From IMG/VR virus record IMGVR_UViG_2529293141_000017, positions 1-25,976 of that record: DNA of 25,976 nt, one strand, 5' to 3'. Shown piece after piece: positions 1-24,435 of this stretch. The notes under the pieces were generated by a model. It was given only the letters and a program-made list of their open reading frames with translations. It was not told where the DNA came from and did not search any database. This DNA comes from a virus. Taxonomy: Duplodnaviria > Heunggongvirae > Uroviricota > Caudoviricetes. Made by a program: the position numbers and the translations under genes. Every line of letters begins with the position of its first letter. The stretch's first letter is position 1.

Positions 1-918
1 GAAACCCGCAATGAAATCACGCAGACGGTCAGTAAAACTCTGGAAGACCAGAGTGCCACCATACAGCAGATACAGCGGGTGCAGACAGACACAAATAACG
101 ACCTGGCTGCGCTGTACATGCTGAAGGTGCAGAAAACAAAAAACGGCATTCCGTATGTTGCCGGTATAGGTGCGGGGATTGAGGATGCTGATGGCCAGCC
201 CCTGAGCAATATACTGCTGCAGGCGGACCGTATCGCGATGATTAACCCGGAGAACGGCAACAGCACGCCGCTGTTTGTGGCGCAGGGGAATCAGCTGTTC
301 ATGAACGATGTGTTCCTGAAGCGACTGTTTGCAGTGAGCATCACCTCGTCCGGCAATCCCCCGACGTTCTCCCTGACGCCGGAGGGCAGGCTGACGGCCC
401 GCAATGCGGACATCAGCGGACATATCAGTGCGAACTCGGGCACGCTCAATAATGTCGTGATAGCGGAGAACTGTACGATAAATGGCACGCTGAAAGCGGA
501 GAACATTATTGGTGATCTTGTGAAATGTGCAGGGGTGGCTTTTCCGGTGGATGGTAGTTACCTTGCGAACGGTACACGAACGCTGACGGTGTATGACGAT
601 CACAGCTTTGACCGGCAGATTATAATCCCGCCGATAATCTATGTCGGGTCAAAACAGGAATCCCGCACCAGTAATGACATCTGGACAGAGTGCTTCCTGC
701 ATGTTGATCAGAACGGACGCCGGATTTATTCAGGCAGGTCAGTGACAGAGCCGGGAATTTTCAGCGGGATCATCGATATGCCAGCCGGTCATGGTCATAT
801 CACCCTGAGTTTTACCGTAAGTTCACGACGTCAGAACGGGAGTTTTGGCAGTTCACGTATCAGTAACCTTCAGGCGATAGTGGTGAAGAAAAACAGCGCG
901 GGGATCAGTATCCGCTGA
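1..918 (+). CDS. J: Phage tail tip / host-specificity protein J, C-terminal part (5' end outside window)
   Basis: Open frame from base 1 with no stop until 918; it sits immediately upstream of the side-tail-fibre gene, as in lambda. The product assignment is from reading the translation, not from a search. Confidence 0.7.
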
Positions 919-1116
919 ACATCGCGCCCCGGGATTGCCGGAAGGAGACAAAAACCGTACAGTATGCGCGGGTGCCTTTGGCTGATGGCCGGAGGGAACA
1001 CCTGAAGGCCGGAAAGACGAAGGCCCCGGACAAACATTCATGTTTAACCCGAGGCCTGACGTTCTTCCTTCAGCAAGAAGAAGGTTAGCGCCTCTCCGTA
1101 AAAGGAGCAAGCGTTT

Positions 1117-1251
1117 ATGTCGCAAAAACCGTTAAAAACCACCGTGATTTGTATCACGGTAGTGCTCATTATCTGGATCACCCACAGTTCACTGTGCGAG
1201 TTCCGGTTCCGGATAGCGGGGCGCGGAGATTGCGGCGTTCTTACAGTGTAA
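1117..1251 (+). CDS. Hok/Gef-family-like small membrane peptide (44 aa), possibly truncated
   Basis: Own translation MSQKPLKTTVICITVVLIIWITHSSLCEFRFRIAGRGDCGVLTV: an N-terminal hydrophobic helix followed by SLCEFRFR, matching the Hok/RelF core (KSLCEIRYR). AAGGAG sits 6 nt upstream of the ATG. The C-terminus diverges from Hok. Confidence 0.3.
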   Translation: MSQKPLKTTVICITVVLIIWITHSSLCEFRFRIAGRGDCGVLTV

Positions 1252-1353
1252 GCAGTAAGAAACCGTGGCGGGGGAGAATATCCCCCGCCGACCGGTTGCT
1301 GAGGGTGGTCAGCCGGATGGCACCGTTTTAACACCAACAAACCACAAATTTTA

Positions 1354-1387
1354 CCGCAGGCCGGGAAACCGGTACTGCGGTTTTTTT
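1354..1387 (+). terminator. Rho-independent terminator-like hairpin immediately upstream of stf
   Basis: CCGCAGG ... CTGCGG stem with a nested CCGG pair, followed by T7, then GGGGG and the ATG at 1401. Confidence 0.5.
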
Positions 1388-1400
1388 ATGGGGGAAATCC

Positions 1401-2801
1401 ATGACAGTCAGAATATCGGGTGTGCTGAAGGATGGTACGGGAAAACCGGTACCGGGATGCACGATAGAGCTGAAAGCGCGCCGCACAACGGAGACGGTGA
1501 TTGTCACCACGGTGGCGTATGGTCAGCCGGGGGAAACCGGCAGTTACAGTATGGATGTTGAGCCGGGTCTGTACCGGGTGACGCTGAACACGGAAGGGTA
1601 CGCGCCGTCATATGTGGGTGACATTCTGGTGAAGGCGGATTCTGCACCGGGAACGCTGAATAAATTTCTGATGGACCTGGAGGACGCACAGTATTACCCG
1701 AAAGCCCTTGCAGAGCTGGAAGCGGTGGCAGCGGAAATCCTGAAACGTGCAGAAGCGTCAGCGGCCAGTGCGGAGGAGGCAAAAAAACGGGCAGAGAATG
1801 CGCGGGGACCGAAGGGGGATAAGGGGGACACCGGGCCGCAGGGTATTCCCGGGCCAAAAGGCGATACCCGCGAGCGGGGGCCAAAGGGTGAGCGTGGTGA
1901 GACAGGACCACAGGGGCTTCAGGGTGTGAAAGGTGAACGGGGAGAGAAGGGCGAAAAAGGCGAGCCGGGAGGGCCGGATGCGACGACGGCACAGAAGGGA
2001 ATTGTGCAGTTAAGCAGCACAACGGACAGTGATGATGAAACGAAGGCAGCCACCCCGAAAGCGGTGAAAGCGGCAATGGACAAAGCGGACGGATGCCTGG
2101 AGAAAGCGAAAAACGGTGACGATATCCCGGATAAGGTGAAGTTTCTGAACACCGTGGGGGCAGCCAGAGTATACGGGCGGGACATTCATACGGGGGCCGG
2201 TGAATGGACCACGAGTGAGTTTGTCGCCTGGCTGAAAGAAAAAGGGGCATTTGACCAGCCTTACTGGATGATGAAGGCATCACTGCTTGCGGAATTTAAT
2301 AAGGTCATCACGGATGTCGGACCGGGAAAACTCAATCTGGGAGGCTGCGCCATTGAGGTGATGGGGACGTATAACGCAGCCATAGTCCGGGTCACCATCG
2401 GCGAATACGGTGGCGATGGTTTTCTGAACGGCACGGTCTGTACCTGTACAGTTTATGGAGACACACAACGTTTTCACTGGCGGGTGGATTACAGCACAAA
2501 AAACAAGCCCACAACAGCAAGCCTGACAGTAAATGGCTGGGAGCGTGATGAAGTAACCGGTCGTTTGCGGCAATGGGGCAGTATTGAGGTAAGTGAGGAT
2601 GATGGTAAGCTTATGACACAGCACTCTATCCGTTTTCCTGTCGCTTTTCCGGTTGCTGCTCTGAATGCTCAGGTGTCTGCAGTGGGAGACCCCAACGCCA
2701 TTAAGATGTATACCCTGTCGAATCCGTCATTAGTGTCTGTGACTCTGATAACAGTCAGGGGATGCTACGGCAAGTTTTCATGGGAAGCGATCGGATACTG
2801 A
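1401..2801 (+). CDS. stf: Side tail fibre protein (lambda Stf-like) with an internal collagen-like Gly-X-Y repeat region
   Basis: The N-terminus MTVRISGVLKDGTGKPV..CTIELKARR parallels lambda Stf (MAVKISGVLKDGTGKPV), and KGIVQLSSTTDS..ATPKAVKAAMD matches the conserved fibre motif. About 58 residues of G-X-Y repeats lie at nt 1806-1980. Confidence 0.85.
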   Translation: MTVRISGVLKDGTGKPVPGCTIELKARRTTETVIVTTVAYGQPGETGSYSMDVEPGLYRVTLNTEGYAPSYVGDILVKADSAPGTLNKFLMDLEDAQYYPKALAELEAVAAEILKRAEASAASAEEAKKRAENARGPKGDKGDTGPQGIPGPKGDTRERGPKGERGETGPQGLQGVKGERGEKGEKGEPGGPDATTAQKGIVQLSSTTDSDDETKAATPKAVKAAMDKADGCLEKAKNGDDIPDKVKFLNTVGAARVYGRDIHTGAGEWTTSEFVAWLKEKGAFDQPYWMMKASLLAEFNKVITDVGPGKLNLGGCAIEVMGTYNAAIVRVTIGEYGGDGFLNGTVCTCTVYGDTQRFHWRVDYSTKNKPTTASLTVNGWERDEVTGRLRQWGSIEVSEDDGKLMTQHSIRFPVAFPVAALNAQVSAVGDPNAIKMYTLSNPSLVSVTLITVRGCYGKFSWEAIGY

Positions 2802-2810
2802 GGGCATTGT

Positions 2811-3035
2811 ATGGAACAGTATGTTTTTTCACCGTCAGAGAATATGTTCTATCCCCTGTCCCTGCGGCCGGTTTATGAGGCAGCAGGGCGCTGGCCGGAA
2901 GACGGTATTGTGGTGGATTATGTGGTGTATAAAGTCTTTGCAGCGGATGCTGCACCGGCAGGTATGAAGCGGGGCGTCGGTGCGGAAAAAATGCCGGTCT
3001 GGGTGCCGGTATCGGAGGAGGGCACGGAAACATGA
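2811..3035 (+). CDS. Tail fibre assembly protein-like, N-terminal-type fragment (74 aa)
   Basis: The N-terminus MEQYVFSPSENMFYP...AGRWPEDG resembles the N-terminal motif of tail fibre assembly chaperones. It is too short for a full Tfa and its stop overlaps the next start (ATGA). Confidence 0.4.
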   Translation: MEQYVFSPSENMFYPLSLRPVYEAAGRWPEDGIVVDYVVYKVFAADAAPAGMKRGVGAEKMPVWVPVSEEGTET

Positions 3036-3304
3036 TGCATATCAGAAATTTTTCGTATTACACCCCGGCGGAGCCGGATGTTGCAGGCGCGATGTACCTG
3101 AAGTCTGAGGATGGTCAGGACTGGTATGAGTGTCAGGCGTTGTTTTCGCCGGAGACGCTGAAGGTGGTGTATGACAGCCGGGGTGTGATTACGGGATACG
3201 GTAAGGACACTGCGTTACTGTGGCCGGTGAACCAGAGTGTGGCAGAAGTGCCGGATACCCCGGAGAACAGGAAAATTGACCTGAGCGGGCGCTGGGGGTT
3301 TTGA
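3032..3304 (+). CDS. tfa: Tail fibre assembly protein (Mu U / P2 G-like), N-terminal part; frame broken at a T4 run
   Basis: SEDGQDWYE...ETLKVVYD...VAEVPD...DLSGRWGF parallels P2 G / Mu U up to the W-x-F motif and then stops. The continuation DGEKI... lies in the -1 frame (see findings). Confidence 0.55.
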   Translation: MMHIRNFSYYTPAEPDVAGAMYLKSEDGQDWYECQALFSPETLKVVYDSRGVITGYGKDTALLWPVNQSVAEVPDTPENRKIDLSGRWGF

Positions 3305-3350
3305 CGGGGAGAAAATCACGGACCTGCTGACCGCGGAGAAAGCGCGAGGG

Positions 3351-3707
3351 ATGAAGGGCGATGAAATTAACGCCTGGCGTAATGCGATGGAAGCGGCGAA
3401 CTACACGTTTGAGCACAATGGGCGTAAATGGGACTACGGGAAGTCAACGCAGACGCGTCTTGAGCCATCGGTGGCGGCGGCGAAAGCGGGGAAACTGCCG
3501 GAGGCGTTTTTCTGGACGGATGCGGAAAACAATGATGTGCCGGTGACAGCAGAAGAGCTTATTGCGCTGAGTGAAGCGGCAGAGCAGGCGATGTTCACTA
3601 AAGGGATGGAAATCCACATTCGCCAGCGCACCATGAAGAAGGACCTGGAATCGCTGAGCAGTGCGGATGAGATCCTGGCATACAGGGTTGGCTGGGCACA
3701 GGAATAA
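3351..3707 (+). CDS. tfa: Downstream part of the same tail fibre assembly gene (or a separate 118-aa chaperone-domain ORF)
   Basis: The frame is open from 3285 and reads ...FDGEKITDLL..., completing the W-G-F-D-G motif of the upstream ORF. ATG 3351 has only a poor Shine-Dalgarno. Confidence 0.45.
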   Translation: MKGDEINAWRNAMEAANYTFEHNGRKWDYGKSTQTRLEPSVAAAKAGKLPEAFFWTDAENNDVPVTAEELIALSEAAEQAMFTKGMEIHIRQRTMKKDLESLSSADEILAYRVGWAQE

Positions 3708-3870
3708 CAGACAAAAAGATGGGGGACCATCACCTCCCCCATGAACTGCGTTGATTATGTCATTATTGTGAAGATATACACTATGCCGGGTAAATAGTGC
3801 CACGGAAAAGTTAATTCCGGAAGTGACGGAACTCTCATTTTTCGCGCATCCTGTTGATATGGATGATTTT

Positions 3871-4200
3871 TCAGATTTCCGGAAGTCCGTATTTTGCCCG
3901 GGCGCGGTTGCATGCTTCATTTGCGATGCCATTTTCTCCGGACATTGCGAATTCCCGGCACGTGGACGGACGGTTTTTGTAAACAGAGCAATATGCGTTT
4001 TTACCCGGAGTTCCCGCCAGAGCGACACATCGGGGATTTTTCTGACTGGTGCCGCGCATACAGCGATGAAAGGGGGATATTTGCTCAGTGAGACTGACCG
4101 GAACCTTTCCGCCAGCATCGTCAGCTTCTGCCCAGTAAAAAGAGACGCGGAAAAATGCACAACAGGCACCACACGTCATGCATGGATTCGGATTGTTCAT
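3871..4200 (-). CDS. YkgJ-family Cys-cluster (CxxCxxCC) zinc/iron-chelating protein, prophage moron
   Basis: [12 protein letters not shown]...RCMRGT...PRCVALAG...[14 protein letters not shown] fits the YkgJ-type pattern. Start chosen at MNNPNPC; an alternative in-frame ATG lies at 4257. Confidence 0.5.
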
Positions 4201-4299
4201 TTTTATACTATTTGTTGTTTTTTCAGCGATCAGATCAAAGGACGCTGAAAAAAACATTCTCCAAAATTAAATTATAACTATTTGATTTTATGGATAGAG

Positions 4300-4331
4300 G
4301 CATGCTTTTTACGCAAAAGTAAAAAGCATGC
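4300..4331. other. Perfect 13-bp-stem hairpin (GCATGCTTTTTAC / GTAAAAAGCATGC) between the prophage end and the potB stop
   Basis: Exact inverted repeat with a 6-nt loop, about 35 bp beyond the potB stop codon. Confidence 0.5.
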
Positions 4332-4364
4332 CAAATTTGCTATTAACTCTTTGAATATTCAGCA

Positions 4365-5228
4365 CTAATCATCTATTTCGGTTGCCTTCTTATTCAGCAA
4401 ACGAGAAGCGCGCCAGTAAACCAGCAACATCAGGCCCATTACGATAGTCAGCGTAATGCTGGTAGCTGCACCAAACGGCCAGTCACGAATATTAAGGAAC
4501 TGGACCTTGATGACGTTACCGATCAGCAGGTTTTTCGCACCGCCCATCAGGTCGGATACATAGAACAGGCCCATCGCTGGCAGCATCACCAGCAGACATC
4601 CGGCAATAATTCCCGGCATCGTCAGTGGAATAATGATACGGATAAAAGTCTGTAACTTGCTGGCACCGAGATCGCGCGCCGCCTCAAGCAACGGCTTATC
4701 CAGTTTTTCGATACTGGAGTACAGCGGCATCACCATAAACGGCAGCAGAATGTAAACCAGACCGATAATCACCGCACTGGGCGTGAACATGATACGGATT
4801 GGTGTGTCGATAACGCCCAGCCAGAGCAAAAACTCGTTGAGATAGCCTTTGGTGCTGAGGAAAATTTTCAGCCCGTAGATACGAATTAATGAGTTGGTCC
4901 AGAACGGAACAATCAGCAGAAACAGCAGCAGCGGACGCACCTTGTGTGGCAACTTCGCCAGAAACCAGGCAAACGGGTAGCCCAGCACCAGGCAGGCGAG
5001 GGTGGCGATCAGCGCCATATTCAGCGAGTGCAATAGCACTTCAAAATAGAGCGGATCGAGCAGACGCGTGTAGTTATCCAGCGTAAAGACCATTTTGACA
5101 AAACTGGCGTCGTCGCGGGTCAAAAAGCTGGTGCCAATGATCATCAGGTTGGGCAGAAAGACAAACAACACAAGCCAACCGACAATAGTGACAATCACTA
5201 CATTCTGGAACTTACTTGTGTTCTTCAT
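4365..5228 (-). CDS. potB: Spermidine/putrescine ABC transporter permease PotB
   Basis: 287-aa multi-TM permease with the EAARDLGA signature. Its start overlaps the potA stop, as in the potABCD operon. Confidence 0.93.
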
Positions 5229-6348
5229 CAGCCAGTACGACCTCCCAGCTTTCTACCCAATTAATGGCCATTTTTTGGTCGAGAGAGTGGTCAAAGTCAG
5301 GATCGTCTTCATTGAAGAATTCGCTGACCATCACCATCTTGCCATTTTCCAGTTCAACAACCGACTCCAGCGTCATGCCTTTGTAGTTACGCTCGCGAAC
5401 GTAACCAATCAGCCCTTCAGCGTGGTTGTCGTCGTTAATCTCTTCAACACGTAAGTCTTCCGGGCGCAGCAGAACATGCAGTTTTTGCCCCGGTTCAACG
5501 GCGAAGTTAACGTAGATATTACATTCGCGGCCTTCAACGTTGGCGCGTACGCGCTGCTCGTCTAGACGTTCGATGACAGTGGCGTTAAACATATTGATTT
5601 CGCCAATGAAGCCGGCAACAAACAGGTTTTTCGGCTCTTCGTAGATTTCACGCGGCGTGCCGTCTTGCTCAATGCGACCATCGCGCATCACCACAATCCT
5701 GTCTGACATGGTGAGTGCTTCTTCCTGGTCGTGAGTCACAAAGACGAATGTAATGCCAAGCTTACGCTGTAACGCTTTCAGCTCGTTCTGCATTTGCTTA
5801 CGCAGTTTGTAATCCAGCGCTGAGAGCGACTCATCCAGCAACAACAGACGAGGCTTGTTAACCACCGCGCGAGCAATGGCGACGCGTTGCTGTTGACCAC
5901 CAGAGAGCTGATGCGGTTTGCGTTGAGCGAAGGTTTCCAACTGCACCATCCGCAGGGCTTCCATCACGCGGGGCGTAATTTCAGCAGCGGGGGTTTTTTG
6001 CATGCGCAACCCAAAGGCCACATTTTCGAACACGGTCATGTGGGGGAAAAGTGCGTAGCTTTGGAAAACAGTGTTCACATAGCGGTTTTCCGCCGGAACG
6101 TGGGTGATGTCCTCGTTATCCAGCATGATGCGTCCGGAATCAACAGTTTCCAGACCTGCAATCAGGCGAAGAACGGTTGTTTTACCGCAGCCAGAAGGGC
6201 CAAGCAGCGTGAGGAACTCGCCATTGTTGATAGTCAGATCCAGCTGGGGAATGACCTCTTTACCATCAAAGCATTTGCGAATTCCCGCCAATTGCACCAG
6301 CGGTGAAAGCGAACTCGGTTGTTTATTCAATTTTTTACTCTGTCCCAT
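5212..6348 (-). CDS. potA: Spermidine/putrescine ABC transporter ATP-binding protein PotA
   Basis: 378 aa with Walker [13 protein letters not shown] signature LSGGQQQR and Walker B LLLDE. Confidence 0.96.
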
Positions 6349-6597
6349 GTAAACGCAACGGATGGCTTACCGATGCGGGGTTTGTGGTTAACCACCTTGG
6401 TGACTCTTAATGAGGGCGGTAATTCTACGGCAAACCGCTTGAATCGCCAATCTTTGTTGTGAATTACTGGCTTAGCTTTATATTCATTAAGGTAATGCTG
6501 ATAAATATTCCCGCTTGCAGGGGTAAAAGTGACCTGACGCAATATTTGTCTTTTCTTGCTTCTTAATAATGTTGTCACAAAAAGTGAGGGTGACTAC

Positions 6598-7824
6598 ATG
6601 GATAAACTACTTGAGCGATTTTTGAACTACGTGTCTCTGGATACCCAATCAAAAGCAGGGGTGAGACAGGTTCCCAGCACGGAAGGCCAATGGAAGTTAT
6701 TGCATCTGCTGAAAGAGCAGCTCGAAGAGATGGGGCTTATCAATGTGACCTTAAGTGAGAAGGGCACTTTGATGGCGACGTTACCGGCTAACGTCCCTGG
6801 CGATATCCCGGCGATTGGCTTTATTTCTCATGTGGATACCTCACCGGATTGCAGCGGCAAAAATGTGAATCCGCAAATTGTTGAAAACTATCGCGGTGGC
6901 GATATTGCGCTGGGTATCGGCGATGAAGTTTTATCACCGGTTATGTTCCCGGTGCTGCATCAGCTACTGGGTCAGACGCTGATTACCACCGATGGTAAAA
7001 CCTTGTTAGGTGCCGATGACAAAGCAGGTATTGCAGAAATCATGACCGCGCTGGCGGTATTGCAACAGAAAAAAATTCCGCATGGTGATATTCGCGTCGC
7101 CTTTACCCCGGATGAAGAAGTGGGCAAAGGGGCGAAACATTTTGATGTTGACGCCTTCGATGCCCGCTGGGCTTACACTGTTGATGGTGGTGGCGTAGGC
7201 GAACTGGAGTTTGAAAACTTCAACGCCGCGTCGGTCAATATCAAAATTGTCGGTAACAATGTTCATCCGGGCACGGCGAAAGGAGTGATGGTAAATGCGC
7301 TGTCGCTGGCGGCACGTATTCATGCGGAAGTTCCGGCGGATGAAAGCCCGGAAATGACAGAAGGCTATGAAGGTTTCTATCATCTGGCGAGCATGAAAGG
7401 CACCGTTGAACGGGCCGATATGCACTACATCATCCGTGATTTCGACCGTAAACAGTTTGAAGCGCGTAAACGTAAAATGATGGAGATCGCCAAAAAAGTG
7501 GGCAAAGGGTTACATCCTGATTGCTACATTGAACTGGTGATTGAAGACAGTTACTACAATATGCGCGAGAAAGTGGTTGAGCATCCGCATATTCTCGATA
7601 TCGCCCAGCAGGCGATGCGCGATTGCGATATTGAACCGGAACTGAAACCGATCCGCGGTGGTACCGACGGCGCGCAGTTGTCGTTTATGGGATTACCGTG
7701 CCCGAACCTGTTCACTGGCGGTTACAACTATCATGGTAAGCATGAGTTTGTGACTCTGGAAGGTATGGAAAAAGCGGTGCAGGTGATCGTCCGTATTGCC
7801 GAGTTAACGGCGCAACGGAAGTAA
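6598..7824 (+). CDS. pepT: Peptidase T (tripeptide aminopeptidase)
   Basis: 408 aa starting [21 protein letters not shown]; GAGGG Shine-Dalgarno upstream. The longer ORF start at 6556 is rejected. Confidence 0.93.
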
Positions 7825-9195: not shown

Positions 9196-9221
9196 CGGTG
9201 TAGTTAATGGTGTAGTTAATT
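9196..9221. repeat. Candidate attL core (CGGTGTAGTTAATGGTGTAGTTAATT)
   Basis: Direct repeat of 24410-24435; lies immediately 5' of the int start. Confidence 0.55.
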
Positions 9222-9242
9222 GTGATGACCGGATTCAAAATT

Positions 9243-10472
9243 ATGAGCAGAGCACTTAACAAACTGAGCGATACACAGCTGAGGAAAATCAACGGCACAC
9301 CCGCCCAAAAAACAGCCTTTCTTAATGACGGTGGAAACCTGAGCGTCAGGCATTCAACCAGTGGCCTTTTAACCTGGTATTTCACTTACAGGGCCGGAAC
9401 GGGAAGGGGGGCACCACCGGAACGCATTAAGCTGGGAAATTATCCTGATCTGAGCCTGAAATCAGCCAGGGAAAAAGCCGCCCAGTGTCGCGCATGGCTG
9501 GCAGAGGGGAAAAATCCACGTCATGAAATGAATTACACCGTACAGGAAGCGTTAAAGCCGGTAACGGTTGGCGATGCGCTCACCTACTGGCTTGAGTCGT
9601 ACGCAAAGGAAAACCGTGTGGATTATGACCCACTGAAAAAGCGGCTAAATAATCACGTAATACAGCACATTGGCCCTATGCCGCTGGATAAATGCGAGCT
9701 ACGGCACTGGCTGACCTGTTTTGATCGGGTGGCAAAGAAAGCCCCTGTTTCCGCCGGGTTCCTGCTACAGACATGCAAGCAGGCGCTTAAGTTCTGCAGG
9801 AAGCGGCGCTATGCAATCAGCAACGTTCTTGATGATATGAGTGTGGCGGACGTTGGGAAAAAACCGGATATAAGTGAGCGTGTCTTAAGTAACAAAGAAC
9901 TTGGCGAATTATTGCAGGCACTGGACAAAAAAATATTTTCCCCTTACTACGTCGCACTAATCCGCCTCCTGATTGTTTTCGGATGCCGGACAGTAGAACT
10001 GAGGTTATCGGAGATCGGCGAGTGGGATTTTACCGAAATGCTCTGGACCGTTCCGAAGGAGCACAGCAAAACGAAGGTAGCCATATTCCGGCCCATACCG
10101 GAAGCGATACTGCCGTTCGTCACGCAGCTGGTGGAGCAGAACAGGCACACGGGCTTATTGCTGGGGGAAGTGAAACAGGAAACCAGCGTATCGCAGTACG
10201 GCAGATTGGTGCACAGGAGGCTTAAACACCCTCACTGGTCACTGCATGACATCCGGCGCACCTTTACAACCATGCTGAACGATTTAGGCGTTGATCCTCA
10301 CGTCGTGGAGCAGCTTACAGGCCACCAGATGCCAGGAATGCAACGCGTGTACAACCATTCCCGCTATATTGATGCGAAACGCAATGCGCTTGATATGTGG
10401 GTGGAGCGGTTGGAGATACTGGCGGGAACACATGAAAACGTAACCACGCTACCAGTAACCAGAATAAAATAA
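9243..10472 (+). CDS. int: Tyrosine integrase (P4-type)
   Basis: N-terminal LSDTQLRKI...NDGGNLSV...WYFTYR arm-binding-like region, and a C-terminal catalytic region with HDIRRTF and a terminal RY...H. Alternative ATG at 9222. Confidence 0.88.
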   Translation: MSRALNKLSDTQLRKINGTPAQKTAFLNDGGNLSVRHSTSGLLTWYFTYRAGTGRGAPPERIKLGNYPDLSLKSAREKAAQCRAWLAEGKNPRHEMNYTVQEALKPVTVGDALTYWLESYAKENRVDYDPLKKRLNNHVIQHIGPMPLDKCELRHWLTCFDRVAKKAPVSAGFLLQTCKQALKFCRKRRYAISNVLDDMSVADVGKKPDISERVLSNKELGELLQALDKKIFSPYYVALIRLLIVFGCRTVELRLSEIGEWDFTEMLWTVPKEHSKTKVAIFRPIPEAILPFVTQLVEQNRHTGLLLGEVKQETSVSQYGRLVHRRLKHPHWSLHDIRRTFTTMLNDLGVDPHVVEQLTGHQMPGMQRVYNHSRYIDAKRNALDMWVERLEILAGTHENVTTLPVTRIK

Positions 10473-11035: not shown

Positions 11036-11215
11036 AAAGACTGGCGGCACACAGCCACCACCAATCCATTATTGACCGATACCGGGATCTCGGTATCGGG
11101 AATAAACGCCATAATACTGAGGTATAACCATGATGAAATATACGCCCGTACAGGGGCGGGGATTCGTTCGCCCTGGTGAATCTGAAAAGCCATGCTATAG
11201 GGTATTTTCAGGCAT

Positions 11216-11243
11216 AAAAAAAGCGGTCCCGATATGGAACCGC
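11216..11243 (-). terminator. Rho-independent terminator for the minus-strand repressor cassette
   Basis: On the minus strand: GGCGGTTCC atatc GGGACCGC followed by T7. Confidence 0.45.
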
Positions 11244-11311
11244 CTTTCTGAACAATTAACCCGCTGCGCCGTATGTGTCAACAATCATAAGCCCGAACAT
11301 GATAACCGTGA

Positions 11312-11515
11312 TCAGGCTGGTGGGCAATTACCTTGCTTGTTGGGGCCGTATTGTGCTGCCATTTTCATCCGTTCAGAACGTGAATATTTTTTTAGAAACT
11401 CATCAAGGACAAAAGCGCATGGAGCGAATCTTTCTGATTCATGCTCGAGCGCCATATTTTCGTGCTCTCTGTTCGTTTTTTGCGATGGTGTATTGGTTGA
11501 TTCTTTATTGGTCAT
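11312..11515 (-). CDS. Hypothetical small protein (67 aa), second gene of repressor cassette A
   Basis: Paralogue of 12028-12255: shared MTN start and a conserved C-terminal F-x-L-D/E-x-F-x-K-Y-x-R motif. It is followed by a terminator. Confidence 0.45.
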   Translation of the reverse strand: MTNKESTNTPSQKTNREHENMALEHESERFAPCAFVLDEFLKKYSRSERMKMAAQYGPNKQGNCPPA

Positions 11516-11572
11516 TGTGTGTACCTGTAAAGCAATGCGCCGTAGTACCTCACGCCACGGCGCTGATAGTAA

Positions 11573-11752
11573 TTATTCTGATTCTTTGGCCTTGCGGCGC
11601 TGGCGGCGTTTGATCTCGCCTTTTGCTGCCGTAACTAGAAATCCGGCGGTACTTTCGCCAGGTTCTTTAAGTTGCTCAATATCGGTCATTACCTCATGCG
11701 GGATTCTGACCGTTGTCATTTGTGATTTTGCGTTCTTTGCACCTGTTGCCAT
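11573..11752 (-). CDS. Ribbon-helix-helix DNA-binding protein (59 aa), candidate island repressor, copy A
   Basis: Own translation MATGAKNAKSQMTTVRIPHEVMTDIEQLKEPGESTAGFLVTAAKGEIKRRQRRKAKESE, with a beta-strand / helix / helix pattern. AGGAGA Shine-Dalgarno 7 nt upstream. Divergent from a plus-strand promoter and operators. Confidence 0.55.
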   Translation of the reverse strand: MATGAKNAKSQMTTVRIPHEVMTDIEQLKEPGESTAGFLVTAAKGEIKRRQRRKAKESE

Positions 11753-11771
11753 TTCTGGTTCTCCTGATAAT

Positions 11772-11864
11772 CGGTGTATTTCAGTATACGCAAAAAAAAG
11801 ATAAAAAAAGTCTTGCGGTGTATTTCACCTGAATGTAGATTTAAAAATGAAGGTGAAATACACC
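11772..11864. promoter_or_regulatory. Operator/promoter region A: GGTGTATTTCACC in three copies, two forming a perfect 13-bp inverted pair
   Basis: 11817-11829 and 11852-11864 are exact reverse complements; a third direct copy lies at 11772-11783. The region sits between divergent genes. Confidence 0.45.
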
Positions 11865-11938
11865 CAAAACAACAACGCCCCGCAGTGATGGGAACACATA
11901 CGGGGCGTCTAACCAAACCATTAATTGAGGTAACGATT

Positions 11939-12010
11939 ATGGCTATAAAAGAGCATAGCTTACTCTTTATACACACACAAACGCCCCGGAAACGGAATAA
12001 TCCGTTTCAT
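11939..12010 (+). pseudogene. Truncated 5' remnant of an Icd-like gene (paralogue of 12685-12879)
   Basis: MAIKEHSLLFIHTQT... shares the M-x-x-x-H-x-x-x-L-x-HTQT start with 12685, then loses similarity where cassette B begins. Confidence 0.35.
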
Positions 12011-12027
12011 AGTTCGGTTTTGTGCAC

Positions 12028-12255
12028 TCATCCTGGCGGTCGGTTTTTGCCGGATTTAAGCCGCCGTGGGTATTTATCGACAAAATCTTCAAGGGCAAAT
12101 TTTTCTGGTGGCACTAAGCGCGGCGCTGGTGGTGGTATTTTTGTTCTGGTTAGTTCTTCCTCAACTCTGGCGCAGGCTTCTGACTGCCTTTGCCGGATGA
12201 TTTCATCATCTTGCGTTTGCGTGTCTTGTATTGGTGATAGTGTGTTGTTGGTCAT
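12028..12255 (-). CDS. Hypothetical small protein (75 aa), second gene of repressor cassette B
   Basis: Paralogue of 11312-11515, same position in the cassette. Confidence 0.5.
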   Translation of the reverse strand: MTNNTLSPIQDTQTQDDEIIRQRQSEACARVEEELTRTKIPPPAPRLVPPEKFALEDFVDKYPRRLKSGKNRPPG

Positions 12256-12312
12256 GATACTGCCCTGTAAAGCAATGCGCCGTAGTACCTCACACCACGG
12301 CGCTGATAGTGA

Positions 12313-12492
12313 TTATTCTGATTCTTTGGCCTTGCGACGCTGGCGGTATTCAACTTCCCGCTTTAATGCAGCTGTAACAAACTGCCCTGTACTTTCGCCG
12401 GGCATTTTTACCGCCTCAACATTGTTCATAACTTCATGTGGAACCCTTGCCGCAACTGTTTGTGATTTTGCGTTTACTGCTTTTGTCGCCAT
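12313..12492 (-). CDS. Ribbon-helix-helix DNA-binding protein (59 aa), candidate island repressor, copy B
   Basis: MATKAVNAKSQTVAARVPHEVMNNVEAVKMPGESTGQFVTAALKREV.... GAGGGG Shine-Dalgarno upstream. Divergent from the replication operon. Confidence 0.6.
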   Translation of the reverse strand: MATKAVNAKSQTVAARVPHEVMNNVEAVKMPGESTGQFVTAALKREVEYRQRRKAKESE

Positions 12493-12542
12493 GTTGAGCA
12501 CCCCTCATAAAAAACAAATGCAGTATGCAGGAAAAAAAACAA

Positions 12543-12594
12543 GTGTTCAACACTTGACGTGTTTAACACCTCGATTTAAATTGGTGTTCAACAC
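12543..12594. promoter_or_regulatory. Operator/promoter region B: three GTGTT(C/T)AACAC palindromes overlapping a TTGACG-N17-TAAATT promoter
   Basis: Palindromes at 12543, 12559 and 12584 bracket the -35 and -10 of the plus-strand promoter feeding 12685 onward. Confidence 0.5.
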
Positions 12595-12684
12595 CTTATT
12601 TAGGCAAGGTGTAGAAACGACGAAACCCCGCACTGTAGGAGCAGTAACGGGGCTTCTAACCAACAACGTAAACGAGGAGCCGTT

Positions 12685-12879
12685 ATGGTTGCCGTAAATC
12701 ATATACCACACCTTGTACACACACAAACGGCCTTTGTGTGGCGTTTTCTGGCACTGAGTGCCGGAGAATCTCAAATCATCCACGTAACCGCCTGGACGGA
12801 ACGCGAAGCGCGTAACCTTTGCCCGTCCGGTTGTGTTGCTGTATTTGCCGCCCGTATTCGCCAGGGGGTAGGCTTATGA
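12685..12879 (+). CDS. Small protein, possibly Icd-like (host cell division inhibitor family); first gene of the early operon
   Basis: 64 aa with a GAGGAG Shine-Dalgarno. The motif FVWRFLALS...TEREAR...FAARI resembles Icd-like proteins of P4-type elements, from memory only. Confidence 0.5.
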   Translation: MVAVNHIPHLVHTQTAFVWRFLALSAGESQIIHVTAWTEREARNLCPSGCVAVFAARIRQGVGL

Positions 12880-13109
12880 GCCAGGAAATCACACTACAAC
12901 AGGCAGCAGAACGCGCCCACCAAATCGAAGTTATTTGCGCACTGGCAGAGGATTACCCTGGCATGATGACCGACAGCGAATCAGGGGCAATCATCGGCTT
13001 ACTTAAACGCCTTAGCGGTGAGGTCTGCGTATTCCTGAGCGATGAACAGGAAAGAAGAACGCTTATTTCTAACGAAAAAAAATGCGGAGGGGTACACCAT
13101 GTGCAATAA
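12876..13109 (+). CDS. Hypothetical protein (77 aa)
   Basis: ATG overlaps the upstream stop (ATGA); GGGGGT Shine-Dalgarno; translationally coupled. Confidence 0.5.
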   Translation: MSQEITLQQAAERAHQIEVICALAEDYPGMMTDSESGAIIGLLKRLSGEVCVFLSDEQERRTLISNEKKCGGVHHVQ

Positions 13110-13341
13110 CATCCGTCCGGACGCAGCCGCCGCCGCACTCACTACGCTGATGCACGCGCTTATTGATATTGAATGCACGGCAGAGCTTGCACAAAAGGAA
13201 GAACGGGAGGAATACACATTGTTCGCCCTGGAATGTATCCGATACACCGCCACGCGGTCGCTGAATGACGCTAAAAATATTCTTGTTGCAGATTGTGAAA
13301 ATGGGGGGGGGTTATGCGTGATGATCGTTTTAATTCCCTGA
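13099..13341 (+). CDS. Hypothetical protein (80 aa) with a G9 tract near its 3' end
   Basis: GGAGGGG Shine-Dalgarno before ATG 13099; overlaps the neighbouring genes. Confidence 0.45.
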   Translation: MCNNIRPDAAAAALTTLMHALIDIECTAELAQKEEREEYTLFALECIRYTATRSLNDAKNILVADCENGGGLCVMIVLIP

Positions 13342-13778: not shown

Positions 13779-14078
13779 ATGAAACTTAAATATTCTGGCT
13801 TAACTGCCAGTGGCAACACTCACCCTAAATTTACGCGCGGTGATATTTACCGCGACCAGTACGGCGGTACGGTAATGATTAAGGGCGTGGCGGGACGGTG
13901 CGTAACTTACCGCCGTGAAGGTTACGAATATGATTGCGTGATGCCTGTTTATCAGTTCCGGCGTGATTTTTCTCTGGTACAGACCGCGCCGCATAACGTG
14001 CCCACCAGCAGGGAGAAAGCACGCGCCAATATTCAGAAGATGAAAAACATGATTAACGGATTCAGGGGCAAGAAATGA
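13779..14078 (+). CDS. Hypothetical protein (99 aa), translationally coupled to the helicase gene
   Basis: Stop overlaps the helicase ATG (ATGA). Confidence 0.55.
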   Translation: MKLKYSGLTASGNTHPKFTRGDIYRDQYGGTVMIKGVAGRCVTYRREGYEYDCVMPVYQFRRDFSLVQTAPHNVPTSREKARANIQKMKNMINGFRGKK

Positions 14079-15472
14079 AAAGCGCACCGAACTTAAAAAA
14101 ACAGCCTTACGACAAGATGACCGAAGTCATCATTTTTGCGGGTAGTGATGCGTGGGCACATGCGAAACAGTGGCAGGAACAGGACGGGCGACTGGCTGGC
14201 GATAATGTGCCTCCCATTGTGCTGGCTGATGATCAACTGGATGAACTGGCAGACCTGAGAATCATCGACGAGGGGCGCTATTGTGTCCGGCTGTACAAGG
14301 CAGGCCACATCAGGCCATCAAATATTAATGCCATTGCGCACAAGCTGGCGGCGGCGGGCGTAACTGATGCGAATTATTACCCCGAAGGGATACACAGCCA
14401 GAAGCGGGAGAACTGGCGCGAATATCTGGAACGGGAGCGGGGGAAAAAGCCAGGGGAAGAACACCACCAGCGAAAAACCACGCTACCGATGAGCGTTGGA
14501 TCTGCCGGATACGACACGCAATTAGATTACGTGGTAAAGGGGATTATTCCGGCATCGTCGCTTTGCAGCATATACGGGGCGAGCGGTTCCTATAAATCAT
14601 TCCTTGCGGGTTCGTGGGCGTGTCACGTTTCCACGGGCCGCCAGTGGGGAGGCCGCAGGGTGGCGCATGGCGCTGTTCTCTATGTGGTTGGTGAAGGCGG
14701 TATCGGCGTTCCGCGTCGTGTAAAAGCCTGGGAGGTTGTGCACGGTGAGCAGGTGAAAAATCTGTATCTGGTAAACCGTCCCATCTTTCCGGCGGTCCCG
14801 CTTGATGTTGATGAAATGGTTATCGCTGCCCGTCAGGTGGAGCGGGAAACGGGTAAACCTGTACGCATGATTATTCTGGATACGCTGGCGCGTTGCTTTG
14901 GTGGGAATGATGAAAATGATTCCCGTGATATGGGGGCGTTTATCCGTGGTTGTGACGAACTGAAACGACGCACAGGGGCCACGGTGCTGGTGGTTCACCA
15001 TTCCGGCAAGGATGAGACGAAAGGCGCGCGCGGTTCCAGTGCATTTCGTGCATCACTGGATGCTGAATACCGGATACGCAGGGAGGACGCAGGAAGCGAA
15101 GCGCTGGTTATCTCATGCACCAAAATGAAGGACGCGGAGGAACTCAAAGAAGCCGCATATGACTTACGCGTGGTGGAGCTGTTTACCGACGCTGACGGGG
15201 AGTTAATCACGTCGCTGGTGGTGGTGGATAAGCCGCGCCCTCCCGTTGAACTGGAGCGCATCGAGGAGGCAGGCAACAAGACGGAAAACCATACCGCACT
15301 ATGGGGGTGCATCCGTTCACGCACACAGAACGGCGACAAGTGCACGATCCCGCTGTTACGTGATGACATGAAACGGCTTGGGTATGACGTGAAAAATATG
15401 CGGCGATGGTTAGCCAAACTGGAAAAAGACGCCGTGATTTACATTGATGGTGATGATGTAGGACCACTGTAA
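14075..15472 (+). CDS. Replicative ATPase/helicase (RecA-fold, RepA/AAA_25-like) with an N-terminal domain of unknown role
   Basis: Walker A GASGSYKS, Walker B-like ILDTLARCFGG, and VVHHSGKD...GARGSSA motifs. Confidence 0.8.
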   Translation: MKSAPNLKKQPYDKMTEVIIFAGSDAWAHAKQWQEQDGRLAGDNVPPIVLADDQLDELADLRIIDEGRYCVRLYKAGHIRPSNINAIAHKLAAAGVTDANYYPEGIHSQKRENWREYLERERGKKPGEEHHQRKTTLPMSVGSAGYDTQLDYVVKGIIPASSLCSIYGASGSYKSFLAGSWACHVSTGRQWGGRRVAHGAVLYVVGEGGIGVPRRVKAWEVVHGEQVKNLYLVNRPIFPAVPLDVDEMVIAARQVERETGKPVRMIILDTLARCFGGNDENDSRDMGAFIRGCDELKRRTGATVLVVHHSGKDETKGARGSSAFRASLDAEYRIRREDAGSEALVISCTKMKDAEELKEAAYDLRVVELFTDADGELITSLVVVDKPRPPVELERIEEAGNKTENHTALWGCIRSRTQNGDKCTIPLLRDDMKRLGYDVKNMRRWLAKLEKDAVIYIDGDDVGPL

Positions 15473-15672
15473 AAAGTGAGTAGCAAAAGTGAGTAATGAT
15501 GAGGTTTTTACAAAATATTAACACGATTACTCACTTTCTCACCTGTATACATGCTCAAAAGTGAGGAGTAAAAAAATCATTATGAAACATACACATAAAG
15601 CATCAAAAAATATCAAGTGAGACGAAGCGAGACGCTTTAAAAAGTGAGGTGTAAAAGTGAGCATGAGTGAGG
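15473..15672. repeat. Iteron array (AAAGTGAG, at least 7 direct and 1-2 inverted copies) with an AT-rich spacer: candidate island replication origin
   Basis: Copies at 15473, 15486, 15530 (inverted), 15558, 15615, 15641 and 15654, immediately 3' of the helicase gene. Confidence 0.55.
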
Positions 15673-15926
15673 AGATAACCAAAATGCGCAGAGACAGAAC
15701 AGGGCCGAAATATAAAGCGTTAGACATGACAGAGCACGCCTTAAAGGTGGCAATCAGGGTAATAGACCGCCACGCGGGGGAAGGATACGCGAAAGCACAT
15801 CCCGAACTGATAAGCGCATTCATGACCACGACGGCGGCAAATTTTGCCACGCTGACAGAGCGGGAGATTGCCGAAGCGGAACAGGTAACAACCATCAACG
15901 TTAAAACCGGAGAGGTGGAATCATGA
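15663..15926 (+). CDS. Hypothetical protein (87 aa)
   Basis: ORF begins inside the last iterons; its stop overlaps the next ATG. Confidence 0.4.
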   Translation: MSEEITKMRRDRTGPKYKALDMTEHALKVAIRVIDRHAGEGYAKAHPELISAFMTTTAANFATLTEREIAEAEQVTTINVKTGEVES

Positions 15927-16237: not shown

Positions 16238-16648
16238 ATGACAGCACAAATTGCAGCTTACGGGCGGCTGGTGGACGACCCGCAGGTAAAACAGAGCAGC
16301 AAGGGCACACCGATGACTCTGGCGCGTATGGCGGTATCGTTGCCATGCAGCCAGGCACATGACGGACAGGCGACGTTATGGTTATCGGTTATCGCATTTG
16401 GCAAACAGGCCGATTTCCTGGCTAAACATCAAAAAGGCGATGTTGCCAGCGTATCCGGCACGATGCAGGTAAGCCAGTGGACCGGACAGAACGGGGAAAC
16501 GCGGCGGGGGTATCAGGTTATTGCAGACAGCGTAATCAGTGCCCGCGCGGCACGTCCAGGCGGGAACAGACGCAAAACCACAGGCACACAGGGTAATCAG
16601 CCACCAGCGGGAGGCGATGACCCTTACGGTGACGGTATTCCGTTCTGA
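16238..16648 (+). CDS. ssb: Single-stranded DNA-binding protein
   Basis: OB-fold-like N-terminal region, a Gly/Pro/Gln-rich linker, and an acidic C-terminal tip DDPYGDGIPF (compare DDDIPF of SSB). Confidence 0.8.
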   Translation: MTAQIAAYGRLVDDPQVKQSSKGTPMTLARMAVSLPCSQAHDGQATLWLSVIAFGKQADFLAKHQKGDVASVSGTMQVSQWTGQNGETRRGYQVIADSVISARAARPGGNRRKTTGTQGNQPPAGGDDPYGDGIPF

Positions 16649-21552: not shown

Positions 21553-21909
21553 ATGGCAAGACCACCGAAAGCCCCCGCCTACCTGGATGATATCGCCGTG
21601 AAGCAGTGGCGGGAAAAATCGCGGCAGCTTGCGGAACGGGGTGACCTGACCCCCGCCGACTGGAGTAATCTGGAACTGTATTGCGTCAATTACTCGATAT
21701 ACCGGAAAGCCGTCGCAGACCTTGCGGCGCGCGGGTTCAGCATTGTTAACAGTCAGGGCGGAGAGAGCAGAAACCCCGCATTAAGCGCGAAATCCGACGC
21801 GGAAAGAGTGATGATAAAAATGGCCTCCTTGCTCGGTTTTGACCCGATAAGCCGCCGTAAAAATCCACCGGAAACAGAAGAAGAGGACGAGCTTGACCGC
21901 CTGGAATAA
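21553..21909 (+). CDS. terS: Terminase small subunit (P27-family-like)
   Basis: MARPPKAPAYLDD... N-terminus; overlaps the terL start. Confidence 0.75.
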   Translation: MARPPKAPAYLDDIAVKQWREKSRQLAERGDLTPADWSNLELYCVNYSIYRKAVADLAARGFSIVNSQGGESRNPALSAKSDAERVMIKMASLLGFDPISRRKNPPETEEEDELDRLE

Positions 21910-24409: not shown

Positions 24410-24435
24410 CGGTGTAGTTAATGGTGTAGTCAATT
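24410..24435. repeat. Candidate attR core (CGGTGTAGTTAATGGTGTAGTCAATT)
   Basis: 25/26 identical to 9196-9221, in direct orientation. Confidence 0.55.

Follow-up and report, generated by a model that had tools for sequence, protein, structure and literature searches.

How does a satellite island of the capsid-forming phage-inducible chromosomal island (cf-PICI) type begin to replicate, and which of its proteins recognizes the starting site? Both questions are raised by positions 15473 to 15671 of the 25,976-bp virus record IMGVR_UViG_2529293141_000017 (“the window” hereafter, meaning the whole stretch of DNA that was analyzed), where an array of short repeats (iterons) adjoins the end of a putative helicase gene. 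Based on sequence comparisons, we consider it very likely that this array is the vegetative origin of an Escherichia coli cf-PICI and that the gene directly upstream encodes a self-loading initiator helicase. A candidate island origin at this place had been put forward in an original prediction made from the DNA sequence. That proposal is supported by a PICI-like layout, a complete cf-PICI surrounding the array, a predicted winged helix in the helicase, covariation between this domain and the iterons, and the replacement of the array together with the Rep gene.

The stop codon (TAA) of the helicase open reading frame (ORF) ends at 15472, and the first iteron starts at the very next base. From left to right, the region comprises three direct copies, a 25-bp AT-rich spacer, two inverted copies, the box TGTATACA, one direct copy, 48 bp of AT-rich DNA, and five direct copies. 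There are 11 sites in total, with six to the left and five to the right of positions 15566 to 15613. The parts of the array are as follows.

15474 to 15503, plus strand: left outer iteron set, with AAGTGAG at 15474 and 15487 and a degenerate third copy; spacing 10 to 13 bp.
15530 to 15544, minus strand: inverted iteron pair, CTCACTT at 15530 to 15536 and CTCACCT at 15538 to 15544.
15543 to 15551, no strand assigned: conserved non-iteron box CTGTATACA (palindrome TGTATACA, 15544 to 15551), with the inverted inner iterons on its left and the inner direct iteron on its right.
15559 to 15565, plus strand: inner direct iteron AAGTGAG, diverging from the inverted pair, with 29 bp between the two starts.
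15566 to 15613, no strand assigned: AT-rich stretch and candidate DNA-unwinding element, with the lowest G+C content of the region; AT-rich at the same place in relatives.
15615 to 15671, plus strand: right iteron set, with AAGTGAG at 15615, AAGCGAG at 15625, AAGTGAG at 15642 and 15655, and GAGTGAG at 15665.

The degenerate third left copy reads GATGAGG (approximately 15497 to 15503), and a full copy is present at the equivalent site in relatives. On the left side, the inverted iterons at 15530 and 15538 face the direct copy at 15559, whereas the right-side copies are all direct (five of five). Furthermore, the 49-nt blocks at 15635 to 15683 and 15467 to 15515 are 71% identical, and the outer iteron sets thus represent a duplicated block whose two copies lie 168 bp apart.

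The original prediction named at least seven direct copies plus inverted ones, around an AT-rich stretch in the 200 bp after the helicase stop. The number stands for the 6-nt core AGTGAG, which has seven direct copies (15616 and 15666 are added to the octamer sites) and one inverted copy. It does not stand for the exact octamer AAAGTGAG, of which 15473 to 15671 holds five direct copies (15473, 15486, 15558, 15641, and 15654) and one inverted copy (15530 to 15537). With at most one mismatch to AAGTGAG, there are eight direct sites (15474, 15487, 15559, 15615, 15625, 15642, 15655, and 15665) and two inverted sites (15530 and 15538), so the claim of inverted copies was borne out. The predicted position was correct as well. 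The copies at 15473 to 15671 flank DNA with 27 to 32% G+C. This composition extends across 15460 to 15640, compared to 55 to 60% G+C in the flanking genes, and the minimum (26.7%) lies at 15560 to 15619.

Might such an array be a chance cluster of an A-rich, purine-rich word in an AT-rich spacer? The region is indeed AT-rich and purine-skewed. However, six of the seven copies of AAAGTGAG in the window fall within 189 bp, and the sole copy elsewhere is at 6581. Dinucleotide-preserving shuffles (n = 100) gave a mean of 0.69 copies per whole window and a maximum of 3, and none of the 100 reached 7. The repeats are strongly nonrandom and clustered around the G+C minimum, and their positions are kept in relatives that use a different word. 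We therefore regard this explanation as refuted, with a negligible residual probability.

To compare related loci, one genome per species was used (80 loci), and the 260 bp after each helicase stop codon were scanned; iteron classes were tallied over 82 loci from many genera. The layout (three direct copies, two inverted copies, a TATA-type box, one direct copy, an AT-rich stretch, and five direct copies) is kept in most of approximately 95 loci from Enterobacterales, and was found in Xenorhabdus, Pectobacterium, Serratia, Morganella, Pantoea, Kosakonia, and Klebsiella. The two-set layout is present in all allele classes, as is an inverted copy at about +58 from the stop codon. In nearly every relative examined, no more than about 12 bp separate the stop codon from the first iterons; the inner direct iteron of relatives lies at +85 to +89. 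The box, in the form (G/A/C)TATA(C/T)A, occurs at +56 to +81 after the stop codon in 59 of the 82 related loci, whichever iteron class they carry, and in none of 82 controls inside the gene. Where an array is missing, which is the case at few loci, the gene is truncated or frameshifted or the contig ends.

The copies within one array change in concert. In four E. coli relatives the copy positions are kept, and three of these four carry AAAGTGGG in every copy instead of AAAGTGAG. Likewise, the positions are kept among 13 E. coli-type origins, where all copies switch together between GTGAG and GTGGG. Iteron columns in these 13 origins are only moderately more conserved than spacer columns (0.74 versus 0.65, or 0.85 versus 0.73 when purines are merged).

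Two other candidates in this region were rejected. Folding of the single-stranded DNA gives a 12-bp hairpin between iteron 2 and an inverted iteron (z = -2.2), which forms because the iterons are inverted. The hairpin leaves the concerted change of the unpaired direct copies unexplained, and a hairpin or structured RNA was therefore dropped as an explanation. A small ORF in the AT-rich stretch (ATG at 15583, 12 codons) was rejected as coding, as it is unconserved in relatives. An Rfam scan of the window found nothing in the array, and the island has no second cluster of the iteron.

The second question is which protein reads the iterons. The gene that ends where the array begins has the following organization.

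14075 to 15472, plus strand: putative initiator-helicase of 465 aa, with an N-terminal domain (aa 1 to 122), a RepA/AAA_25 RecA-fold core (aa 146 to 314), and a winged helix (aa 404 to 465).
15284 to 15469, plus strand: coding region of the predicted winged helix (aa 404 to 465), with the recognition helix at aa 439 to 451 and the Asn441 codon AAT at 15395 to 15397.

The core (aa 146 to 314) matches Pfam AAA_25 (E = 8e-44) and, weakly, the hexameric helicase RepA of RSF1010 (1g8y, E = 0.004). Over its whole length, the protein matches phrog_2850, a family annotated as of unknown function. An AlphaFold2 model of aa 378 to 465 alone has a predicted local distance difference test (pLDDT) score of about 85 over three helices (404 to 419, 425 to 434, and 439 to 451) and a beta hairpin (455 to 458 and 461 to 464). 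This predicted C-terminal winged helix most resembles those of Orc/Cdc6-type proteins and transcription factors. A Foldseek search with the full-length model returned only weak RecA-fold matches, such as Rad51, RadA, and KaiC, because that model is poor. A word-index search for proteins yielded nothing but fragments when the query was the C-terminal domain by itself. An exhaustive HMMER search found the same C-terminal domain behind AAA_25 cores that carry an N-terminal Zn-ribbon plus Toprim primase, DnaB-N, or no such domain.

The class of iteron at a locus covaries with the start of the recognition helix across the 82 loci: Asn441 is found with GTGAG, His with GTGGG, Lys with TGGGGG, and R-K-S-F or R-K-G-F with TGCGG. 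The tally by recognition-helix motif is given below.

K-N-[FM]-x-R-W: iteron GTGAG(G), counted as GTGAG or TGAGG, in 29 of 32 loci.
K-H-[FL]: iteron GTGGG(G)A, in 9 of 13 loci.
R-K-H-F: iteron TGGGGGC, in 2 loci, which are counted among the 13 K-H loci.
K-K-F: iteron TGGGGGAA (TGGGGG), in 28 of 29 loci.
R-K-S-F: iteron TGCGGC, in 8 of 8 loci.
R-K-G-F: iteron TGCG(C/G), in both Enterobacter loci fetched.

Several iteron classes occur within one genus (Kluyvera, Kosakonia, Pantoea, and Rosenbergiella), and the iteron class therefore follows the protein rather than the host. A minimal pair from E. coli narrows the correspondence further. Protein P0004 (K-H-F) adjoins 6 + 2 GTGGG copies, and protein P0050, which has K-N-F in an otherwise identical winged helix, adjoins 6 + 2 GTGAG copies and no GTGGG. 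The pair P0007 and P0030 behaves in the same way with respect to Asn and His. The change from Asn to His at residue 441 requires one base change, AAT to CAT, at 15395.

From the fold prediction and this covariation, we infer that the C-terminal winged helix of the helicase binds the iterons. Under a narrower proposal, the choice of iteron would depend on one residue where the recognition helix begins, which is Asn441 here and His, Lys, or an R-K-S/G insertion in relatives. The comparisons are compatible with this narrower proposal, which we nevertheless consider somewhat less likely than not. We found no paper describing such a residue-iteron recognition code.

Four loci (L010, L024, L031, and L086; Xenorhabdus plus a metagenome-assembled genome) carry AAATGAGGAA iterons, in which the first core base is A rather than G, and keep K-N-F. 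In all four, helix 3 ends in a distinct way and is followed by a distinct wing (…KLENDGLITRN…NQRNDD), a hint of a second specificity contact.

The iterons might instead have a reader outside the helicase C-terminal domain, such as the DUF4222 protein encoded just upstream of the helicase, a small downstream protein, or a factor from the host or a helper phage. Binding of the iterons by the helicase is deduced from sequence, and two of the difficulties listed below, namely, close linkage of codon 441 to the array and hybrid arrays beside K-N-F proteins, would suit such a reader. However, the helicase gene is the only gene that always adjoins this type of array, whereas the gene downstream varies (a phrog_1231 ORF, ProQ, or a 257-aa ORF). 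An identical DUF4222 protein (WP_000770163.1) precedes both a helicase-type Rep with GTGGG iterons (L003) and a primase-type Rep with GGTAGA iterons (L007), and the DUF4222 protein is therefore not the iteron reader. A host factor cannot account for at least five iteron classes within single genera. Finally, the sole winged-helix difference in the minimal pairs is Asn or His at the start of the predicted recognition helix, and the match of residue to base makes chemical sense (Asn with A, His or Lys with G). We thus judge a different reader to be decidedly unlikely.

The N-terminal part of the helicase tells a related story. Residues 1 to 122 (14075 to 14440) are 63% identical to the N terminus of the D5_N/SF3 (superfamily 3) “DNA primase family” Rep of sibling islands (L006:1376-1750). 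The DUF4222 gene, these 122 aa, and a downstream single-strand DNA-binding protein (SSB) are common to both kinds of island, but the iterons of the siblings are unrelated (CTGTCTACC or GGTAGA) and occupy the same gap. In other words, exchange of the Rep gene is accompanied by exchange of the entire array. The N-terminal 122 aa appear to be a shared adaptor domain common to nonhomologous Reps, and the comparisons show the motor, the predicted DNA-binding domain, and the putative origin traveling as one exchangeable cassette behind it. The N-terminal domain also matches part of phrog_864 (“DNA primase”), and a DUF4222 gene always precedes it. In a 563-aa E. coli homologue (P0001), the winged helix breaks off within the recognition helix (…TKHLKRWLA) and continues into a PF02924 segment. 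The probable cause is a deletion in a decayed island, in which the origin and the genes after it were lost.

Several observations weigh against an origin read by the upstream helicase, or against the single-residue proposal. First, we found no binding or replication experiment on this replicon in the literature searched. Second, inverted copies are present only in the central left part of the array, unlike in the origins of Staphylococcus aureus pathogenicity islands (SaPIs), which have them on both sides. Third, binding sites of other factors were sought with simple consensus patterns only, which turned up no DnaA box (at most one mismatch), integration host factor (IHF) site, Fis site, or GATC in 15400 to 15750; the lack of DnaA boxes in itself speaks for the proposed origin. 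Fourth, the full-length AlphaFold2 model has a pLDDT of 62, with only the N- and C-terminal domains confident. Fifth, no primase or SF3 domain was found in the helicase and no primase gene in the island, which bears on the route of priming. Sixth, codon 441 is only about 75 bp from the first iteron, and part of the covariation could therefore reflect linkage of neighboring sequence. Seventh, many loci share ancestry (L089 and L091 have one origin, and L092 and L095 one right half), so the independent events are far fewer than the loci.

Finally, two K-N-F islands carry hybrid arrays: L093:2108-2320 and L095:2102-2320, on contigs of the E. albertii/E. coli and Salmonella types. The left half of the L093 array is GTGAG and the right half mostly GTGGG; in L095, the left half is mixed and the right half is GTGGG or ATGGG. 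Over its right half, the L095 array hardly differs from that of the K-H-F island L092, and recombination thus occurs inside the origin. These mixed arrays reflect either loose specificity or recent recombinants.

A tandem arrangement was observed in Xenorhabdus beddingii (L009:4020-4320), where a second array of another specificity class directly follows a complete GTGAGG-type origin. It comprises AAAGTGGGG, AATGGGG, GGTGGGG, and an inverted CCCCACTTT, with the same CTGTATAT box, and looks like a second origin that could be used by a K-H-type helicase from another island. We also considered whether avoidance of cross-talk between coresident islands drives iteron diversification. This idea is not supported, because genomes with two or three islands of one iteron class exist (Xenorhabdus and Pectobacterium).

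The right edge of the array touches the next gene, which raises the question of whether the iterons serve expression rather than replication.

15663 to 15926, plus strand: first gene after the putative origin, phrog_1231 family (E = 4e-51, profile from residue 6), as annotated by RefSeq on an identical stretch.

With the RefSeq start (ATG at 15663), the last iteron core (15666 to 15671) falls in codons 2 and 3, and the predicted overlap of the last iterons with the start of this ORF holds. That result carries a caveat, in that the start codon used by relatives of the phrog_1231 gene aligns to ATA 15675 of the window. An alternative start at ATG 15681 has a good Shine-Dalgarno sequence (GAGGAG, 15668 to 15673), which is part of the last iteron and is better than that for ATG 15663.

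Accordingly, the repeats might be operator sites for the transcription or translation of genes from 15663 on, through which the helicase or another regulator times late genes. This idea fits the last iterons, which overlap the next gene where its start and Shine-Dalgarno sequence lie. Moreover, no terminator separates the helicase gene from the next gene, and the region therefore lies inside an operon. The iterons of many plasmids also act in autoregulation. However, a scan of 15300 to 15800 found no plus-strand sigma-70-like promoter (and no terminator), only one weak minus-strand promoter-like site at chance level. Eleven sites over 200 bp around an AT-rich core, together with a TATA-type box, form an origin-like layout, and the array stays constant while the downstream gene differs. 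A regulatory side role would also be compatible with origin function. We consider operators in place of an origin unlikely.

The island in which the putative origin lies includes the following features.

9196 to 9216, plus strand: attL, a 21-nt direct repeat CGGTGTAGTTAATGGTGTAGT, the longest exact repeat common to both island flanks.
24410 to 24430, plus strand: attR, the second copy of the 21-nt repeat at the right island end, from the same repeat comparison.
9222 to 10472, plus strand: island tyrosine integrase, 416 aa.
13779 to 14078, plus strand: DUF4222 protein (Pfam DUF4222, E = 2e-23), whose stop codon overlaps the helicase start (ATGA).
16238 to 16648, plus strand: island SSB (Pfam SSB, E = 3e-16), kept downstream of the origin in many relatives.

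The element is an E. coli cf-PICI of the EcCIEDL933 type, approximately 15.2 kb long and integrated between roxA and phoQ; the window itself is E. coli chromosome. The island encodes the integrase, small regulators, DUF4222, the helicase (followed by the array), two small ORFs, the SSB, a PerC homologue, and the packaging and capsid genes (major capsid, prohead protease, portal, head closure, connectors, HNH, TerS at 21553, and TerL). No tail or lysis genes were found in the island using Pfam and the RefSeq annotation of a 99.5%-identical island. Thus, it has the size (about 15 kb), att repeats, integrase, regulator, replication module, and own capsid/terminase set of a cf-PICI. It also matches the cf-PICI gene set described previously (10.1101/2022.09.08.507074), and its integrase length and island size match those of the EDL933 element in the supplement of PMC6092414.

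Among 5,426 complete E. coli genomes, 1,738 contain a related helicase-origin segment, with at least 80% of the query covered in 444 of them. A nucleotide search of a phage collection gave no match, and a protein search of the same collection gave distant helicases only (at most 52% identity).

This context bears on the idea that the array is a packaging (cos or pac) or recombination site. In its favor, the island uses HNH-TerS-TerL to package its own DNA, and sites bound by terminase can be marked by short repeats. However, the array is 6 kb from terS and directly follows the helicase gene. It swaps with the type of Rep rather than with the packaging module, and three islands that differ in their capsid/terminase modules (L002, L003, and L004) carry the same kind of array. 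The att repeats, for their part, are elsewhere (9196 and 24410). We regard a packaging or recombination role as extremely unlikely.

Some further observations concern the island and its surroundings. Positions 11061 to 13259 differ from an island in strain 25-07338 (L001) that is otherwise 96 to 99.5% identical; this ordinary mosaic region of such islands contains a helix-turn-helix regulator, two YlcI/YnfO-family genes, and an Icd-like gene. A 120-nt internal repeat is present at 11489 to 11606 and 12227 to 12346 (88% identical). Outside the island, at 970 to 1128, lies a sok antitoxin RNA of the hok/sok type I toxin-antitoxin system (Rfam 62.9 bits, gathering threshold 59). Its neighborhood is a region with type III secretion system effector genes (espW, DUF1076, and WxxxE) in the RefSeq annotation of L001. 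The Rfam scan of the window found the sok RNA only, and the window contains no tRNAs. A Klebsiella pneumoniae record (L096; CP018459.1, pKp_Goe_795-4) describes a 16,971-bp circular nonmobilizable “plasmid” with the same origin layout. It carries the integrase, helicase, origin, capsid, and terminase genes, and one coding sequence annotated as a tail tape measure protein. This record probably represents an island in its excised, episomal state, which would fit a replicating form and is no proof of one.

How, then, might the island initiate replication? Judging from the gene layout, induction would lead to transcription of the island operon, and the 465-aa protein would be made along with the DUF4222 protein. 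The C-terminal winged helix would then bind the 7- to 9-bp iterons, A-A-G-T-G-A-G-(G), with Asn441 at the start of the recognition helix reading the A at core position 4, as the fold prediction and covariation suggest. The approximately 11 sites, whose layout is seen in the sequence, could gather many subunits on both sides of the AT-rich stretch. By analogy to SaPI Rep and P4 alpha, the RecA-fold RepA/DnaB-like core may form rings, melt the AT-rich DNA without DnaA, and load itself. The island SSB would coat the single strands, and a host primase and polymerase would carry out synthesis. Host DnaG is the likely primer source because the island has no primase domain or gene. Furthermore, because the motor is of the RecA fold rather than SF3 or superfamily 6 (SF6), its strand polarity and primase recruitment should differ from those of SaPI Reps and P4 alpha. 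The last iteron would also supply the ribosome-binding or start region of the next gene.

If the single-residue proposal is true, the change from AAT to CAT plus a concerted change of approximately 11 iterons would yield a new replicon specificity, and hybrid (L093 and L095) and tandem (L009) origins would let the helicase of one satellite fire the origin of another. It would also provide a simple recognition code for a family of RecA-fold self-loading initiator-helicases, and the comparative data predict that residue 441 pairs with iteron base 4. More generally, cf-PICIs are widespread satellites that move virulence and defense genes between enterobacteria, and they must amplify before packaging. 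Knowledge of the origin and its reader would offer a 200-bp cis element and a single protein with which such replicons could be built or blocked, as well as a marker for typing islands by replication specificity.

The find is sound and largely ordinary. This origin design has already been published for PICIs (Fillol-Salom et al. 2018) and SaPIs, and the gain is therefore incremental. The cf-PICI paper (10.1101/2022.09.08.507074) does not treat the origin, and our literature searches found nothing on this helicase type or its iterons, nor anything joining EcCIEDL933 and an origin of replication. What appear to be new are the RecA-fold motor fused to a winged helix, the residue-base correspondence, and the conserved TATA-type box.

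Among known systems, the winged helices of archaeal Orc1/Cdc6 and the eukaryotic origin recognition complex (ORC) resemble the predicted domain at the level of the fold only (9 to 12% identity). Their ATPases are AAA+ rather than RecA-fold, and generic winged-helix transcription factors (Fur, RosR, and MecI) score almost as well as Orc/Cdc6. Classical iteron plasmids (F, R6K, pPS10, and P1) have iterons of 17 to 22 bp, DnaA boxes, often IHF sites, and an initiator that lacks a helicase. The cf-PICI array resembles their origins in having directly repeated sites beside an AT-rich stretch and a putative initiator with a predicted winged helix. However, its iterons are 7 to 9 bp, it has no DnaA box or IHF site, and its putative initiator is the helicase, which places it outside this class.

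Among relatives with a solved structure, RSF1010 RepA (1g8y) comes closest to the ATPase core, and the two proteins share membership in Pfam AAA_25. Based on the RSF1010 RepA family, movement in the 5′-to-3′ direction is expected for the helicase described here. In IncQ plasmids, origin recognition at 20-bp iterons falls to RepC, a separate protein, and RepB′ primes at the ssi sites. By contrast, the match to RSF1010 RepA is weak and confined to the core, and the predicted origin-binding winged helix is fused to the helicase. Pfam and the RefSeq annotation revealed no RepC-like or RepB-like gene in the island, and the system is therefore not of the IncQ type.

P4 is an enterobacterial satellite with octamer iterons, to which its helicase-containing initiator, alpha, binds through the C-terminal domain; its replication is independent of DnaA. 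The island shares with P4 the use of short iterons and a helicase-containing (here putative) initiator by a satellite. However, alpha combines a primase with an SF3 helicase, and P4 needs a second cis-acting iteron cluster, crr, several kilobases away, whereas the island has neither a primase nor an SF3 domain and only one iteron cluster. We therefore do not assign it to the P4 type. PMC6092414 refers to P4 alpha together with its cognate ori.

The same study described the pri-rep-ori module of EcCICFT073, an island of the same kind in the same host, whose rep-ori segment enables a plasmid to replicate in E. coli (Fillol-Salom et al. 2018, PMC6092414). Its origin also lies directly 3′ of the initiator gene, with two iteron sets flanking an AT-rich stretch (PMC6092414). 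The two systems differ in that EcCICFT073 uses a P4-alpha-like SF3 pri-rep protein, whereas the island studied here uses a RecA-fold RepA/AAA_25 protein without a primase domain, and their iterons are unrelated.

SaPI Rep is a self-loading helicase whose C-terminal winged helix binds 5- to 6-nt iterons and which needs no DnaA or loader (Qiao et al. 2022, PMC9371898). SaPI origins have 6 to 12 iteron copies just after the rep ORF, with an AT-rich center (PMC9371898). There is no detectable sequence similarity between the SaPI systems and the array or helicase described here. SaPI Reps have SF3 or SF6 (AAA+) motors that move in the 3′-to-5′ direction, whereas the core here is RecA-fold and RSF1010 RepA-like. 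SaPI iterons are opposed on both sides of the AT region, whereas the inverted copies here are confined to the central left part. Nevertheless, both have iterons directly after the ORF of an initiator-helicase (a putative one in our case), an AT-rich center, and a C-terminal winged helix, which is predicted in our case. The cf-PICI array thus has two features of a PICI/SaPI-type origin, being located directly 3′ of the putative initiator gene and composed of two sets of short iterons that flank an AT-rich stretch.

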